Below, in pieces: positions 1,514 to 5,747 of a DNA stretch of 5,747 nt. The translations under genes and the position numbers were made by a program. Position 1 is the first letter of the stretch. Every line of letters starts with the position of its first letter. The stretch is from a virus (lineage: Duplodnaviria; Heunggongvirae; Uroviricota; Caudoviricetes): the IMG/VR virus record IMGVR_UViG_2576861133_000018, one strand, 5' to 3'. Below the pieces are notes generated by a model that had not been told where the DNA came from, searched no databases, and worked only from the letters and a program-made list of their open reading frames with translations.

Positions 1514-2041
1514 TTATTCTGGTTTCTGTGGCCATTCAGGCTTTGCAGTATCCACACGGCTGACCATAACGCTGTAGCGTTCCCATGATTCCAGTCGTGT
1601 GCGTTCCTCATCAGTTGCCATATTCAGTCTGACAGCACGTTCCAGCGGTTGAATCACAGACTCCGCTTCGGAAAGCAAAGCGGCTTTTTGTAACTCTGCC
1701 TGCTGTTGCAGTTCCTGTTTTGTATATTCCCGCTTTACTACTTTACCATCCAGAAACTTCCAGTTTCCCGAGATATCGGCGCGACGGTTGGCTGTTATAT
1801 TCGGTAACTCAACAACACTTAACCCGTCAGGGTTAAGTGTTGATACGTCTTTCTCAATACAACGAATAATCCCCTTCTGGTCATAAGCTATTTTTAAAGT
1901 ATCATCCTGAAAGTTTTTTAATTCGTCATACCAGTTTTTACCGTCTTCTGTATATAGCCAGATAACGCCAGCTTTTTTCGTAAGCTGATACTGCTCAATG
2001 GTTTTGGGGTTTCCGGCGGTAATATTTTTCAGATGTTGCAT
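1514..2041 (-). CDS. tfa: Tail-fibre assembly protein (Tfa chaperone), alternate copy
   Basis: 175-aa [43 protein letters not shown]..., paralogous to 950-1483. It lies immediately downstream of the minus-strand tail-fibre gene; start ATG 2039-2041 is 15 nt after that gene's stop. Confidence 0.85.
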
Positions 2042-2056
2042 ATATTCTCCTGATGG

Positions 2057-3338
2057 CTATGCCTGTTCAACGTTATACCAGTTACCAGAAATGTATTTTT
2101 GTAGTGGTCGTGACACCATCCAGTCATCTCCATCAACCTCACCAATAATTTGCAATCCTGTTGTCACATGACCATTACCTGGTTCGCAAAGTCCTCCGCG
2201 ATATAATGTGTCAGAACGTCTGCCTCCCAGACGCACATTTCTGATAAAAGAACTATTCAGGTAATCATTTAAGTTTGACCCCCAGCACCCACCAAATATA
2301 TTTCCATCGGTGTTATAACGGACGCCACCCGCAATAAGAGCACCCGGTGAAATAAAGGATTTATCGTTCGGGTTAAACTGCCATAAAGCATCATTACCGC
2401 CATCGCCACGCATATGAATACATGGAACCGGAAATCCATACTGTTCTGTCAGTAAATACCCAAAGCTGACCGCGCCGGGATAGCCCTGTCCATTGCGAAT
2501 GGACAAGCCCTTAACTATCGGCACGTAAAGACCACCAGGAGTGGGATTCCAGGCAAACTGCGTCTGAACAAAAGGCGCGGTGGCATTATTCAACTGGTCT
2601 GCAAATGCGCCACTTCCATCAGGAATTATTCCCTGATGAATATATGCAACCCGCTTATAAAAATCAGCAGATGCGGGTTGAAGCCCAAATGCCAGTTGTC
2701 CATTTGAATAGAATAAAAGGACACCGTCGCCGCCCTGTTTAATACCAGTGTCGTTATCTCCGAGAGTAATGGAATTACCGCCCAGTGCGTTATCTGTACC
2801 AAGCGCCAGCCCACCATCAATTTTGGCCCCGTGGCTGACAGATATAGCACCTGTTCTCAGATTTATAGCGAATGGCCTTAATGGGCCGATATCACCGTTT
2901 TCGCCTTGTCCTTCAGCCGTCGGAATGAAATGAAGAAAATCTTCTGAACGACGGAAAATAAGACCGAAGGCATCATTGAAAATTCGCAGCGCATTCACCG
3001 TGCCAATTTTCAGTTCTCCGGTCATTTTATCGCCGGAACGCTGAACGGCGTTACCAGCCTTGTTTACCGTTTCCTGTAAACCGAGGTAGACAGATATAGC
3101 ACCTGTTCTCAGATTTATAGCGAATGGCCTTAATGGGCCGATATCACCGTTTTCGCCTTGTCCTTCAGCCGTCGGAATGAAATGAAGAAAATCTTCTGAA
3201 CGACGGAAAATAAGACCGAAGGCATCATTGAAAATTCGCAGCGCATTCACCGTGCCAATTTTCAGTTCTCCGGTCATTTTATCGCCGGAACGCTGAACGG
3301 CGTTACCAGCCTTGTTTACCGTTTCCTGTAAACCGAGG
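2057..3338 (-). CDS. Alternate tail-fibre C-terminal variable domain (no own start; would be fused to the constant N-terminal part only after inversion); contains an in-frame 84-aa tandem duplication
   Basis: Frame is open from the crossover site down to the stop at 2057; the ORF track starts at Met 3277. Immediately upstream in frame is NLGLQETVNK, encoded by the crossover site, preceded by TAA. Shares the Gly-rich motif and C-terminal tip with the + strand tail fibre. The 5' boundary is approximate. Confidence 0.8.
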
Positions 3339-3340
3339 TT
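2837..3340. repeat. Perfect direct tandem duplication, 2 x 252 bp (copy 1 about 2837-3088, copy 2 about 3089-3340)
   Basis: By eye the two copies are identical over about 250 bp (gacagatatagcacctgttctcag ... gtttcctgtaaaccgagg). The encoded 84 aa (MTGELKIGTVNALRIF ... AVQRSGDK) appears twice in the 2057-3277 ORF. Each copy ends with ttcctgtaaaccgagg, the left half and core of the crossover site. Confidence 0.9.
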
Positions 3341-3348
3341 TTAGATAA
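3323..3348. other. 26-bp invertase crossover site (pix/gix/hix family), right boundary of the invertible segment
   Basis: ttcctgtaaacc ga ggttttagataa has two 12-bp inverted half-sites around a 2-bp core. From memory it differs at one position from the phage Mu gix site (TTCCTGTAAACCGAGGTTTTGGATAA). It lies just upstream of the invertase gene, the position it occupies in Mu, P1 and e14. Confidence 0.75.
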
Positions 3349-3349
3349 T
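3323..3349 (+). promoter_or_regulatory. Possible invertase promoter overlapping the crossover site
   Basis: -10-like GATAAT at 3344-3349, about 54 nt upstream of the GTG at 3403. In Mu and relatives the invertase promoter overlaps the crossover site. No convincing -35 was identified. Confidence 0.2.
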
Positions 3350-3402
3350 GGCGGTTTCTGGCCTGCATGGCATGATTTGTGCTTTTGGACGGGAGATTCA
3401 GC

Positions 3403-3645
3403 GTGCTGATTGGCTATGTAAGGGTATCAACAAATGACCAGAATACAGATCTGCAACGAAACGCTCTTGTTTGTGCAGGATATGAACAAATATTTGAAGA
3501 TAAATTAAGCGGAACAAGGACAGGCCGACCTGGATTAAAACGTGCTTTAAAGCGCCTTCAAAAAGGTGACGCACTGGTTGTCTGAAAACTGGACTGACTG
3601 GTTCACTGTATGCGGCATCTTGTCGTGCTGGTGGTGGAAGCCTAG
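3403..3645 (+). pseudogene. pin: Decayed Pin/Gin/Cin-family serine DNA invertase (N-terminal fragment only)
   Basis: RBS ggaga at 3392-3396, then GTG 3403 encoding (M)LIGYVRVSTNDQNTDLQRNALVCAGYEQIFEDKLSGTRTGRPGLKRALKRLQKGDALVV, the conserved invertase N-terminus including the catalytic Ser in VRVST. TGA at 3583-3585 sits where family members have Trp (WKLDRLGRS). A second in-frame TGA at 3595-3597 is followed by recognisable homology (HCMRHLVVLVVEA) to TAG at 3643-3645. The C-terminal two-thirds, including the DNA-binding domain, is missing. The ORF track calls 3379-3585. Confidence 0.75.
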
Positions 3646-3729
3646 AAAAAGTATCGGGTGTTACTGAACCGTGTTGATACATCAACTGCACCTGATATTG
3701 AGTGGCCTACGAACCCTGTCAGGGAGTAA
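3646..3729 (+). pseudogene. 3' fragment of a tail-fibre assembly gene, fused in frame to the invertase remnant
   Basis: Encodes [27 protein letters not shown], matching the C-terminus of the ORF at 4509-4778 ([27 protein letters not shown]). No start codon and no N-terminal part. Confidence 0.65.
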
Positions 3730-3780
3730 TCATTGGGATTATGCCGCAGCACGTCTTAAGCAAGAACGTGCTGCGGTTGG
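3646..3780. repeat. Direct repeat copy A (tfa 3' end plus downstream hairpin), about 135 bp, roughly 85-90% identical to copy B
   Basis: Identical blocks cgtgttgatacatcaactgcacctgatattgagtggcct and cctgtcagggagtaatcattgggattatgccgcag are shared with 4694-4829; differences are scattered elsewhere. Confidence 0.8.
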
Positions 3781-3792
3781 ATGCTATTTTTT
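3744..3792 (+). terminator. Hairpin with trailing T-run between the pin/tfa remnant (+) and the convergent methyltransferase gene (-)
   Basis: Perfect 11-bp stem ccgcagcacgt / acgtgctgcgg with an 11-nt loop (3744-3776), followed by ttggatgctatttttt. The T-run is separated from the stem by 8 nt, so not a textbook terminator. Confidence 0.4.
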
Positions 3793-4452
3793 CCCTGAAG
3801 CGGAAAACATTACTACAGTACCTTGAACCTTGGTTTTAACATTCTCGAAATGCTCTGAGAGTATATGTGTTAAGCCTTCTTCGGAATCTTTTGTGTTTGA
3901 AAAGATGCCTTTCTGATTGTAAATGCGCATCAGTTTTTGACCGAAGCTATTGTGCACAACTCCATCGCCAAGAATTGTGGCTCCGTATAGAGTTCCATCG
4001 TCAGTTAAGGCCTGCGCCGCATTGCGTATTACACAGCTTTTTGTAGATATATTTCCAGGCAGGCAGTGAAGAAGGTAAAACATGGAAATGGAATCAAATT
4101 GACCATGTAACGCCGCGGGATAAGGTTCAAAAACATCATGGCTAATTTTATGTTTAATTTTTGATTCCCCAGCCCTTGTAGATGCCGCGTTCAGGCTAGC
4201 TTCGTTCAAATCCATTAAAGATATCAGACTACTCTCAGGTACGTGAGTAAGGTAAAACCCAGTTCCAACACCAATATCCAGATGGTTGTTACCTACATGT
4301 TCCAGAAAGTGTGGAAGAAGGTGTTCCTTTGTAGGACATCCCCATGCAAGCCGATTTGATACTCCCAAAACCCACCAGTCATAAAGCTTTAGGGTAAGTG
4401 GTGTGTAAATTTTAGCCCCATCATCTGTGTTTTTTTTCATTGATTTCACCAT
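3784..4452 (-). CDS. Class I SAM-dependent methyltransferase (Rossmann fold), substrate unknown
   Basis: 222-aa ORF with glycine-rich motif I HLDIGVGTGFYL, an acidic post-I residue (LMDLN) and motifs II/III (FDSISMFYLLHCL, LTDDGTLYGATIL). No DPPY/NPPY/SPPF or PC/ENV DNA-methyltransferase motifs. Start could be ATG 4452 or the in-frame ATG 12 nt downstream; neither has a strong SD. Confidence 0.75.
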   Translation of the reverse strand: MVKSMKKNTDDGAKIYTPLTLKLYDWWVLGVSNRLAWGCPTKEHLLPHFLEHVGNNHLDIGVGTGFYLTHVPESSLISLMDLNEASLNAASTRAGESKIKHKISHDVFEPYPAALHGQFDSISMFYLLHCLPGNISTKSCVIRNAAQALTDDGTLYGATILGDGVVHNSFGQKLMRIYNQKGIFSNTKDSEEGLTHILSEHFENVKTKVQGTVVMFSASGKK

Positions 4453-4471
4453 GTTATAGTTTTATTTGTGA

Positions 4472-4500
4472 ATTAAATCAATTATGGCGATGAATTACAA
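4472..4500 (-). promoter_or_regulatory. Candidate sigma70 promoter for the methyltransferase gene
   Basis: On the minus strand: TTGTAA (plus 4495-4500), 17-nt spacer, TTTAAT (plus 4472-4477), about 20 nt upstream of ATG 4452, in an AT-rich 56-bp divergent intergenic region. Confidence 0.3.
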
Positions 4501-4508
4501 GGGGTTAA

Positions 4509-4778
4509 ATGCTGCCGCAGCATAGCGATATTGAAATAGCCTGGTATGCTTCGATACAGCAGGAGCCGAATGGCTGGAAGACCGTCACCACACAGTTCTA
4601 CATCCAGGAATTCAGTGAGTATATTGCGCCACTGCAGGATGCTGTAGATCTGGAAATCGCAACGGAGGAAGAAAGATCGTTGCTGGAGGCATGGAATAAA
4701 TATCGGGTATTGTTGAATCGTGTTGATACATCAACTGCACCTGATATTGAGTGGCCTGCAAATCCTGTCAGGGAGTAA
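4509..4778 (+). CDS. Truncated tail-fibre assembly protein (C-terminal domain only)
   Basis: 89-aa ORF with RBS aagggg 4 nt before ATG 4509. The C-terminal part ([39 protein letters not shown]) resembles the C-terminus of the Tfa at 1514-2041 ([36 protein letters not shown]). The conserved Tfa N-terminus (MxHLKNI...GVIWLY) is absent. Confidence 0.6.
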
Positions 4779-4829
4779 TCATTGGGATTATGCCGCAGAC
4801 ACGTCGTATGCAGGAACGTGCTGCGGTTA
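4694..4829. repeat. Direct repeat copy B (tfa 3' end plus imperfect hairpin 4793-4826)
   Basis: Partner of 3646-3780; see copy A. The hairpin ccgcagacacgt ... acgtgctgcgg has a one-base bulge. Confidence 0.8.
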
Positions 4830-4892
4830 GTTTGTGAGCTTTCGATAGTGGTTGTTATTTTTGCCCTTATTTGTTCCGGAGGCCATGGTTCA

Positions 4893-5063
4893 ATGGTCCG
4901 TCTGCCCCCTGTGGTGATGTCAGCAAAATCAGCCACTGCGCGAACCACAATAGCCCGGGAAGATGCTGAAGATCACCAGGTAAAGCTGTCAGCGCAGAAA
5001 CTGGAAGAACTGCTCGCATCAATGGTTAAGGATGAGGTTGATCGCAATGATGGGATTTATTGA
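4893..5063 (+). CDS. Hypothetical small protein (56 aa); possibly a pseudogene whose frame continues past an in-frame TGA to 5153
   Basis: ATG 4893 is preceded by ggagg at 4876-4880 (12-nt spacing). Encodes MVRLPPVVMSAKSATARTTIAREDAEDHQVKLSAQKLEELLASMVKDEVDRNDGIY. The ORF-track TTG start at 4782 overlaps the upstream hairpin and is less plausible. The same frame stays open after TGA 5061-5063 for 29 more codons to TAA 5151-5153. No recognisable family. Confidence 0.3.
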   Translation: MVRLPPVVMSAKSATARTTIAREDAEDHQVKLSAQKLEELLASMVKDEVDRNDGIY

Positions 5064-5157
5064 CGTCAGCGAGAGCAGAAGGAAGAACTGAATAACCTGA
5101 ATGATTTACGCTCAATCAGAGCGATGGCGATTAGCGGCAATCACGCTCGATAAAATT

Positions 5158-5184
5158 AACCCCGGTGATCATCCGGGGTTTTGC
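5158..5184. terminator. Intrinsic terminator, probably bidirectional
   Basis: GC stem ccccgg (5160-5165) / ccgggg (5173-5178) with palindromic loop tgatcat, followed by tttt (5179-5182) on the + strand; the minus strand reads stem then ttaatttta. It lies between the end of the + frame at 5153 and the Rha gene stop at 5190. Confidence 0.65.
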
Positions 5185-5189
5185 ATTCA

Positions 5190-5747
5190 TTAAAACCGCA
5201 TCAACCTTTCCACCAATTGTTCTTTACGGGCAACGATCCACCCATGTTGCTCCAGATAAAATTTAAACCGTTCCAGCGTGCATACCATCGCATCGGCGGG
5301 GACTTTTTCTGTGAACTCGACCTGACCGTGTTTATCGAAGTGGATCAGTAATGCGCATCCATTATTTGGGGCGGGGGAGTTTTGTGCTGCAGGAGGACGT
5401 TTGTGGAGTTCTTCTTCCATTGCGTTAAATTTTTCAATGTAAGCTTCTTTTAGTCTGGCTGCTTTTTTGCCAGTAAATCCCATTACGAGGAACATGAAGC
5501 CGTCTTTTGTGATCAGGTAGCATCGTGATTCACGTTCTGCGCCGTTGCCAATTTCGACAGTCTGAACATCGGCCGAAAAGTTGGCTGATGTAAATTCGGG
5601 AGAGCAGTCGAGTGTGTCAATCTTAGCTAAAACGTGTTTATGTTGTTTATCGAAGTAGTCGGCAACAGCTTGAGAGGTGGTAACCAGGCGACCATCTTTG
5701 AAAAAGACTTTTGGTGACTCGTTAGAAAAAGTTATAGCTGTATTCAT
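5190..5747 (-). CDS. Rha-family phage regulatory protein (antirepressor-like)
   Basis: 185-aa ORF whose N-terminal half (FFKDGRLVTTSQAVADYFDKQHKHVLAKIDTL...YLITKDGFMFLVMGFTGKKAARLKEAYIEKFNAMEEEL) matches the pattern of the phage Rha regulatory domain. The start ATG is the last 3 nt of the window, so the true start could lie further upstream. Confidence 0.7.
   Translation of the reverse strand: MNTAITFSNESPKVFFKDGRLVTTSQAVADYFDKQHKHVLAKIDTLDCSPEFTSANFSADVQTVEIGNGAERESRCYLITKDGFMFLVMGFTGKKAARLKEAYIEKFNAMEEELHKRPPAAQNSPAPNNGCALLIHFDKHGQVEFTEKVPADAMVCTLERFKFYLEQHGWIVARKEQLVERLMRF

Follow-up and report, generated by a model that had tools for sequence, protein, structure and literature searches.

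An intact tfaX-type open reading frame in a lambdoid prophage moron region, probably a remnant of gene fusion

Introduction

Does an open reading frame with a good ribosome-binding site and a convincing domain match encode a protein of use to the phage that carries it? The question is raised by an 89-codon open reading frame (ORF) in a 5747-nucleotide stretch of caudoviral DNA (IMG/VR record IMGVR_UViG_2576861133_000018), the whole of which is referred to here as the window. A preliminary description saw in it a C-terminal domain of the tail fibre assembly protein Tfa, standing alone behind its own ribosome-binding site and preceded by about 35 novel residues, and offered two explanations: an expressed, truncated chaperone domain, or a remnant left when the adjoining methyltransferase region was acquired. 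In the sections of PMC9608196 that cite North et al. (2019), Tfa is described as modular: a variable N-terminal domain attaches to the fibre tip, and trimerisation is mediated by a conserved helical domain at the C-terminus. Here we show that the ORF is an ordinary, already annotated chimeric pseudogene of the tfaX type, present in the window as an intact allele, and we argue that it is very probably a non-functional fusion remnant that happens to have stayed open.

Results

Anatomy of the open reading frame

The ORF lies on the + strand between an ATG at 4509–4511 and a TAA at 4776–4778, and the preliminary description was accurate as to its 89-residue length, its good Shine–Dalgarno (SD) sequence and their 4-nt spacing: AAGGGG occupies positions 4499–4504, with the four bases TTAA separating it from the start codon. 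Its parts are as follows.

4485–4508, + strand: 5′ untranslated region of about 24 nt from a phrog_3893-type gene, including the SD sequence (DNA alignment with L093, L094 and phage Ayreon)
4509–4778, + strand: the 89-residue chimeric ORF, allelic to K-12 tfaX/ylcE and belonging to phrog_2341
4509–4595, + strand: codons 1–29, the unambiguous 5′ end of a phrog_3893-type gene (phmmer, PHROGs, DNA alignment)
4596–4616, + strand: junction zone, codons 30–36 (FYIQEFS), from DNA alignment against lambda tfa and phrog_3893 genes
4617–4778, + strand: 3′ end of a lambda-type tfa gene (the last 53 or so codons and the stop), coding for the conserved helical region at the C-terminus

In the PHROGs database, the ORF as a whole corresponds over its full length to phrog_2341 (E 4e-61). 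PGAP calls only positions 4602–4778, as a tail fiber assembly protein pseudogene that is incomplete and missing its N-terminus. Since an N-terminus of the phrog_3893 family is joined to a Tfa C-terminus, the ORF is a scrap of gene fusion. Neither the ORF nor the phrog_3893 members gave an NCBIfam match, the window contains no RNA family recognised by Rfam, and the RNA structure of the leader and start region is not unusual (z +0.77).

The 5′ part derives from a phrog_3893 gene

The N-terminal residues are indeed unlike Tfa, the Pfam Caudo_TAP match being confined to residues 31–86, but they are not novel. Residues 3–37 match positions 2–36 of the 79-position phrog_3893 profile (E 3e-7). A phmmer search with residues 1–38 against 1.8 billion representative proteins returned only copies of the chimera and full-length relatives. 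Two of the latter, P0123 and P0124 (relatives of 77–117 residues), are 65–69% identical to the ORF over residues 1–36 (E 5e-8 and 2e-7) and part from it after ...KTVTTQ; beyond the shared stretch they continue ...TVTTQRFVQGLSKVNW..., where the window sequence is different. The P0123 gene is divergent from a dinI gene. A tblastn search of phage genomes with residues 1–38 found the identical ORF in lambdoid phages, a match of 51% identity in Klebsiella phage Kp4882-3 (E 8e-6) and weaker matches in Eeyore, HK225, HK140 and mEp390. Intact 79-residue ORFs, for example MPRNSDIEIAWRQAIVIEPNGRRTVTTSGFIRELAKVNWHWS..., occupy the match sites; they are assigned to phrog_3893, a family of unknown function, with E-values of 1e-37 to 5e-42, and in Kp4882-3 and Eeyore they lie directly 5′ of umuD-like genes. 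Family members were located at 3004–3243 of L011, 2504–2743 of L012, 228–461 of L093 and 332–685 of L094, the last of these divergent from dinI.

In the alignment with P0123, P0124, Kp4882-3 and Eeyore, similarity ends after residue 35 or so, and the conserved C-terminal half of the full-length 79-residue protein is absent from the ORF. In the DNA alignment, the window becomes homologous to native phrog_3893 genes near position 4485, about 24 nt 5′ of the ATG; the homology takes in the SD sequence and is unambiguous as far as 4595. The native genes have LexA boxes 35–60 nt 5′ of their start codons; these are perfect matches to CTGT-N8-ACAG in Kp4882-3 and Eeyore and carry one mismatch in L093 and L094. 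No such box, with up to one mismatch allowed, occurs between 4301 and 4560 of the window, so the ORF has neither the upstream LexA box nor the SOS-gene neighbourhood (dinI, umuD-like) that characterises phrog_3893. As the 5′ homology includes the SD sequence and nothing of the LexA box, we conclude that the ribosome-binding site came with the phrog_3893 gene and that the SOS promoter/operator region was left behind. The site noted previously is thus present, but in origin it is not the ORF's own.

Pfam gave no significant match to phrog_3893 members. A conserved family of 77–79-residue proteins with a LexA box just upstream of the gene, phrog_3893 looks like an uncharacterised SOS-regulated gene. 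A literature search with the peptide string gave no match; we found no record of a phrog_3893 origin for the 5′ third of tfaX-type ORFs, which may be a new detail.

The 3′ part is the C-terminal end of Tfa

Residues 31–86 match positions 75–130 of the 131-position Caudo_TAP profile (PF02413; E 6e-25, 88 bits), a similarity to Tfa that on this E-value is far beyond chance, and the restriction of the match to these positions means that the ORF covers no more than the C-terminal 43% of the family model. No Tfa model in Pfam or PHROGs matches the first 30–35 residues, and none extends upstream of residue 29. Residues 32–86 align with residues 123–174 of the 175-residue Mu Tfa (PDB 5YVQ_B), and lambda-type Tfa proteins show 79–81% identity from ORF residue 27 onwards. 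Relative to the full-length lambda-type proteins, the first helix of the C-domain is short of about 20 residues (AEKLFRIREAEETKNSLMQVA). Alignment to full-length Tfa, recommended earlier as the way to define the breakpoint, places the junction at 4596–4616. This zone is about equally like both parents and contains the motif CAGGnAnnCAG, a resemblance that fits a microhomology-mediated join.

The ORF therefore retains, though incompletely, the conserved helical (oligomerisation) region of Tfa, and it could be imagined to work as a generic trimerisation helper for fibre folding, either in cis or for other prophages. The SD sequence, the ATG and the reading frame are intact, and what has been kept is the conserved helical portion to which trimerisation is ascribed in the part of PMC9608196 that draws on North et al. 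(2019). AlphaFold2, run with a shallow alignment, predicts helices at residues 28–47 and 53–71 with pLDDT of about 70–84; elsewhere confidence is low, with a mean of 59.6 for the ORF and values below 50 at the N-terminus. The ORF is also common enough to form a PHROG of its own. Against such a role, it lacks the fibre-binding N-terminal domain altogether, giving no match to Caudo_TAP_N, as well as the residues missing from the first helix. Moreover, tfa genes lie immediately 3′ of their cognate fibre genes and in the same orientation, whereas the upstream neighbour of the ORF is a methyltransferase gene on the opposite strand. Both fibre genes of the window (ending at 948 and at 2057, minus strand) have full-length Tfa genes of their own (950–1483 and 1514–2041, minus strand), which cover Caudo_TAP positions 2–131.

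Two further features were observed to the left of the ORF. The minus-strand tail-fibre C-terminal ORF at 2057–3277 contains a 252-nt tandem duplication (2829–3080 and 3081–3332, 99% identical), which appears in its 406-residue product as a duplicated segment of 84 residues, MTGELKIGTVNALRIF... A pin-type DNA invertase gene at 3379–3585 is cut to its first 68 codons (Pfam Resolvase positions 2–69 of 145; a PGAP pseudogene), a reduction that presumably locks the invertible stf/tfa segment on its left.

A methyltransferase gene bracketed by tfa 3′ ends

The surroundings of the ORF comprise the following features.

3632–3778, + strand: left-hand tfa 3′ end, with an in-frame TAG, and hairpin; a direct repeat with 4681–4828 and a PGAP pseudogene
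3784–4452, minus strand: class I SAM-dependent methyltransferase gene of the ybcY family (phrog_2132)
4779–4828, + strand: right-hand copy of the conserved, terminator-like hairpin after tfa, aligning with sequence 3′ of lambda tfa

The start-less tfa fragment reported earlier at 3646–3729 is real and forms part of a 147-nt direct repeat (3632–3778 and 4681–4828, about 89% identity) that consists of a tfa 3′ end with its hairpin. The two copies bracket the methyltransferase gene and the phrog_3893 scrap. Their hairpins have folding energies of −28.5 kcal/mol (z −5.2) on the left and −24.1 kcal/mol (z −2.6) on the right. In the left-hand scrap (3632–3729), the in-frame TAG (GAAGCCTAGAAA; TGG in other tfa genes) falls at the tryptophan codon equivalent to Trp62 of the ORF, which is TGA in K-12 tfaX.

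Positions 3300–5200 are 100% identical to many E. coli chromosomes of the ST131 type, such as that of JJ1886, where they lie beside ompW′/trpA, at the right-hand end of a lambdoid prophage that has decayed. The order there is J, lom split by ISEc12, stf, tfa, an inverted tfa/stf′ pair, the pin fragment, a tfa scrap, the methyltransferase gene, the second tfa scrap, a DUF4376 pseudogene, rha and ash. Among 84 related loci, the tfa frame on the other, left-hand side of the methyltransferase gene is open for at least 150 residues in 32, and we take these frames to be full-length tfa genes; in the three loci for which gene calls were available (L223, L224 and L226), it encodes a Tfa of 194 residues that has both Pfam domains. 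A full-length tfa was never found in the related loci at the site of the ORF itself. In phage Ayreon the arrangement is the same except that the methyltransferase gene is deleted and more of the phrog_3893 gene is kept, interrupted by a stop. In L225 the module adjoins P2-type tail genes, and in L226 three tfa 3′ ends follow one another. In L226, which comes from another E. coli, we also observed, at 2728–3312, a fusion of the sequence that follows the hairpin of the ORF (window 4782–4930) to a further tfa 3′ end; its product, P0074, is joined at almost the same point as the ORF (...SAKSA/EYIAPLQ..., the slash marking the join), which suggests a recurrent recombination point near SEYIAPLQ. The duplicated tfa 3′ ends probably let the ybcY-type methyltransferase moron move between phages by homologous recombination.

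The methyltransferase gene has a run of eight A residues (4430–4437, minus strand) at codons 5–8. Four of its IMG/VR copies end after five codons when read from the internal ATG, and K-12 ybcY is frameshifted; the run could be a slippage site or the seat of a sequencing error.

The ORF is an allele of tfaX

Alignment with K-12 DLP12, ev243 and PhiR68_2 shows the spacer and the junction to be invariant. The ORF thus has the phrog_3893/tfa junction of tfaX and, like it, is divergent from a ybcY-type methyltransferase gene. The order in DLP12 is nohD, tfaD′, ybcY (frameshifted), a tfa pseudogene with an "internal stop", appY and ompT. Of 5426 complete E. coli genomes, 3868 contain the 161 nt made up of the spacer and codons 1–30, with as many as four copies per genome. 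When one genome per species was searched with a 22-mer from the N-terminal segment, only E. coli, Shigella flexneri, E. albertii and two metagenome-assembled contigs were found; the latter (L216 and L222), which carry the exact 22-mer, are short (3–4 kb) and labelled Bacillus sp. and Planococcaceae, and most likely represent Escherichia contamination. Degraded remnants of DLP12 keep the methyltransferase gene and lose the ORF after about nine codons.

Variation in the ORF resembles neutral decay

Rare variants, defined as those seen in three loci or fewer, were counted in 80 IMG/VR loci picked by best similarity, a sample biased for that reason towards intact copies. The ORF has 24 nonsynonymous rare variants, three of them nonsense, and seven synonymous (pN/pS 0.93), which is not distinguishable from neutrality (binomial p 0.83). 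In the methyltransferase gene of the same 80 loci, there are 12 nonsynonymous and 11 synonymous variants and no stops (pN/pS 0.31; p 0.009 against neutrality). The two genes compared directly give Fisher p = 0.08, and these selection statistics rest on about 30 rare variants. Purifying selection on the ORF as a coding gene was thus not seen, the variants being few and the power limited.

When all variants are taken, pN/pS in the tfa part is 0.34; the common variants there come in linked blocks and are mostly synonymous. Comparison of the window with the lineage of P0022 (L223/L224) gives a dS of 0.62 in the tfa part and 0.014 in the methyltransferase gene, with 55 of 56 spacer positions identical. 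So high a dS beside so low a one indicates that recombination has exchanged the tfa part for that of other tfa alleles. Omega in this part is 0.17, and codons 1–35 differ at five nonsynonymous and two synonymous positions. We attribute the low tfa-part values of omega and pN/pS to import from functional tfa genes, a pattern that selection on the ORF could mimic.

Disruption was surveyed in 120 IMG/VR contigs picked by the N-terminal 22-mer alone, in which 117 copies of the ORF could be scored. Intact copies number 74 (63%) and disrupted copies 41 (35%), the remaining two being otherwise aberrant. A premature stop or frameshift is present in 25, arising from at least eight different lesions that include at least four different nonsense mutations, and in 16 the last 13 or so Tfa residues are swapped for unrelated sequence. 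The methyltransferase gene, though 2.5-fold longer, is intact in 104 of 115 cases and broken in 11 (10%). It is apparently the selected cargo with which the ORF travels. That the frame is open here and in most sampled copies, behind a good SD sequence and ATG, weighs against a remnant; neutral decay of an ORF so short and young would be slow.

Overall, the variation looks neutral, with no sign of upkeep for function. The preliminary description had held that an unconserved N-terminus derived from out-of-frame or non-coding sequence, together with a lack of expression, would speak against a gene; what was found is in-frame coding sequence of another gene, which nevertheless amounts to a foreign scrap showing no sign of constraint. 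These observations also bear on the proposed trimerisation helper: rare variation is neutral, 35% of copies are disrupted, and truncated alleles occur in viable phages, plaque-forming PhiR68_2 carrying one of 61 residues and plaque-forming ev243 one with a replaced C-terminus, while the K-12 allele has a stop at codon 62. We consider that role unlikely.

Expression

The SD sequence and ATG being intact, the protein may be made whenever transcription crosses the ORF, which is possibly translated but not selected. A consensus scan for promoters on the + strand found none 5′ of the ATG; by eye, a candidate extended −10-like element, TGTTATAGT, was noticed at 4452–4460. For K-12, in vitro binding of RNA polymerase and H-NS to the ybcY/tfaX spacer has been described, and a promoter ATGGCA-15-TTAAAT has been proposed for tfaX (PMC3946193). 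This promoter overlaps the ATG, so its transcript would start downstream of the start codon. In a mixed biofilm, the ylcE/tfaX signal changed 2.55-fold on a macroarray (PMC3646849), and an overexpression screen lists tfaX among unconfirmed candidates for a 3-fold increase in kanamycin MIC (PMC12924614). The polymerase binding, macroarray and kanamycin reports have no bearing on a selected function.

Discussion

The chimeric anatomy of the ORF, the shared junction, the loss of the LexA box, the neutral variation and the frequent disruption all point to a remnant. Of the two explanations offered at the outset, the remnant is supported; the truncated chaperone domain may be expressed but, given the population variation and the disrupted copies, is unsupported as a function.

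Two other functional readings rank below the trimerisation helper. The product might act as a decoy, co-oligomerising with the C-domain of full-length Tfa and so poisoning fibre assembly in competing or superinfecting lambdoid phages; the support for this is only indirect, namely that the ORF retains the oligomerisation region without the fibre-binding region, is very widespread and sits in a prophage moron region. A decoy would, however, harm its own carrier, since carrier phages depend on their own lambda-type Tfa about 1 kb away. The ORF has, moreover, no promoter of its own, the native LexA box having been lost, and its neutral rare variation and the 35% of disrupted copies speak against a decoy as they do against a helper. 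We regard it as very unlikely. The chimera could alternatively be made at prophage induction, through late read-through, and, with its Tfa oligomerisation helices but no fibre-binding domain, act in trans as a modulator or poison of fibre assembly in other lambdoid phages that have the conserved Tfa C-domain in common. If true, this would amount to inter-phage competition at the assembly step, but we give the idea just as little credence.

Least probable of all is that the N-terminal 35 residues are not foreign and represent the diverged middle of a 5′-truncated tfa gene or an antisense dinI remnant. Two things might suggest this: a forced alignment, in which the DNA 5′ of the junction is weakly similar to lambda tfa, with gaps, and a minus-strand "DinI family protein" pseudogene called by PGAP in EC11. 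Against it, residues 1–36 are in frame with full-length phrog_3893 proteins (E 5e-8 to 3e-7) and share their SD sequence and ATG, no Tfa model reaches upstream of residue 29, and the DinI domain of Eeyore lies elsewhere. Both candidates were rejected, the first on the grounds that the forced MAFFT alignment with lambda tfa is gapped and frame-breaking while in-frame phrog_3893 homologues exist, and the second after minus-strand translation and inspection of Eeyore had revealed an over-extended CDS antisense to the 79-residue gene. The EC11 call is a frameshifted pseudogene antisense to the N-terminal scrap, at 3088–3167 of L010 (equivalent to window 4527–4606, minus strand). In Eeyore, the N-terminal extension of an over-extended 160-residue CDS is antisense to the 79-residue gene and its true DinI domain is elsewhere in that CDS; over-extended DinI CDSs such as this explain the EC11 call, which is probably an annotation artefact.

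For the fusion remnant that we favour, the following history can be proposed. Illegitimate recombination at the level of microhomology would have joined the ribosome-binding site, start codon and first 30–35 codons of a small phrog_3893 phage gene to the last 55 or so codons of a lambda-type tfa. The join would have adjoined the methyltransferase moron and left it bracketed by two tfa 3′ ends with their terminator hairpins. Because the junction is identical everywhere it was found, this fusion appears to have happened once. The product would then have spread through the lambdoid and P2-like prophages of Escherichia and Shigella as a hitch-hiker on the methyltransferase gene, and the two tfa 3′ repeats probably act as homology arms that recombine with resident tfa genes. 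Such exchange may go on overwriting the tfa part of the ORF with sequence from functional tfa genes and so help the frame to stay open. Whereas the anatomy and the variation are observed, the order of events and the role of the repeats as homology arms are what we infer from them.

As biology, the ORF matters little. It is a worked example of how, where the moron DNA of lambdoid prophages is mosaic, a good ribosome-binding site and an intact domain match can make a recombination scar look like a gene.

Comparison with known systems places the ORF between its two parents and beside one sibling. The phrog_3893 proteins of Kp4882-3 and Eeyore resemble it in their first 35 or so residues, and the SD sequence and start codon are homologous; the window has neither their C-terminal 44 residues (...NWxWS...ANxWIE...) nor the LexA box, the divergent dinI or the umuD-like gene that follows. 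With full-length lambda-type Tfa (lambda orf-194, comprising Caudo_TAP_N and Caudo_TAP), the ORF shares the last 55 or so residues, at 79–81% identity, and the same terminator hairpin follows the stop in lambda tfa. Unlike the lambda-type proteins and Mu Tfa (gpU, PDB 5YVQ), it is missing the entire N-terminal fibre-binding domain and the first part of the helical domain, and it differs from full-length Tfa genes in not lying 3′ of a fibre gene and in not showing purifying selection.

The closest counterpart is K-12 tfaX (ylcE, b0563), which lies beside ybcY in DLP12 and has the same methyltransferase neighbour, spacer, SD sequence, ATG and phrog_3893/tfa junction. The two are identical nucleotide for nucleotide in the spacer and junction and up to codon 58. 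At codon 62, TGG has become TGA in K-12, leaving an ORF of 61 residues, and beyond this codon the K-12 sequence is that of another tfa allele with another right-hand junction. The prophages differ in location, that of the window lying near trp/ompW and DLP12 at argU. The ORF of the window, by contrast with K-12 tfaX, is open to the natural tfa stop and has a complete Tfa C-terminus.
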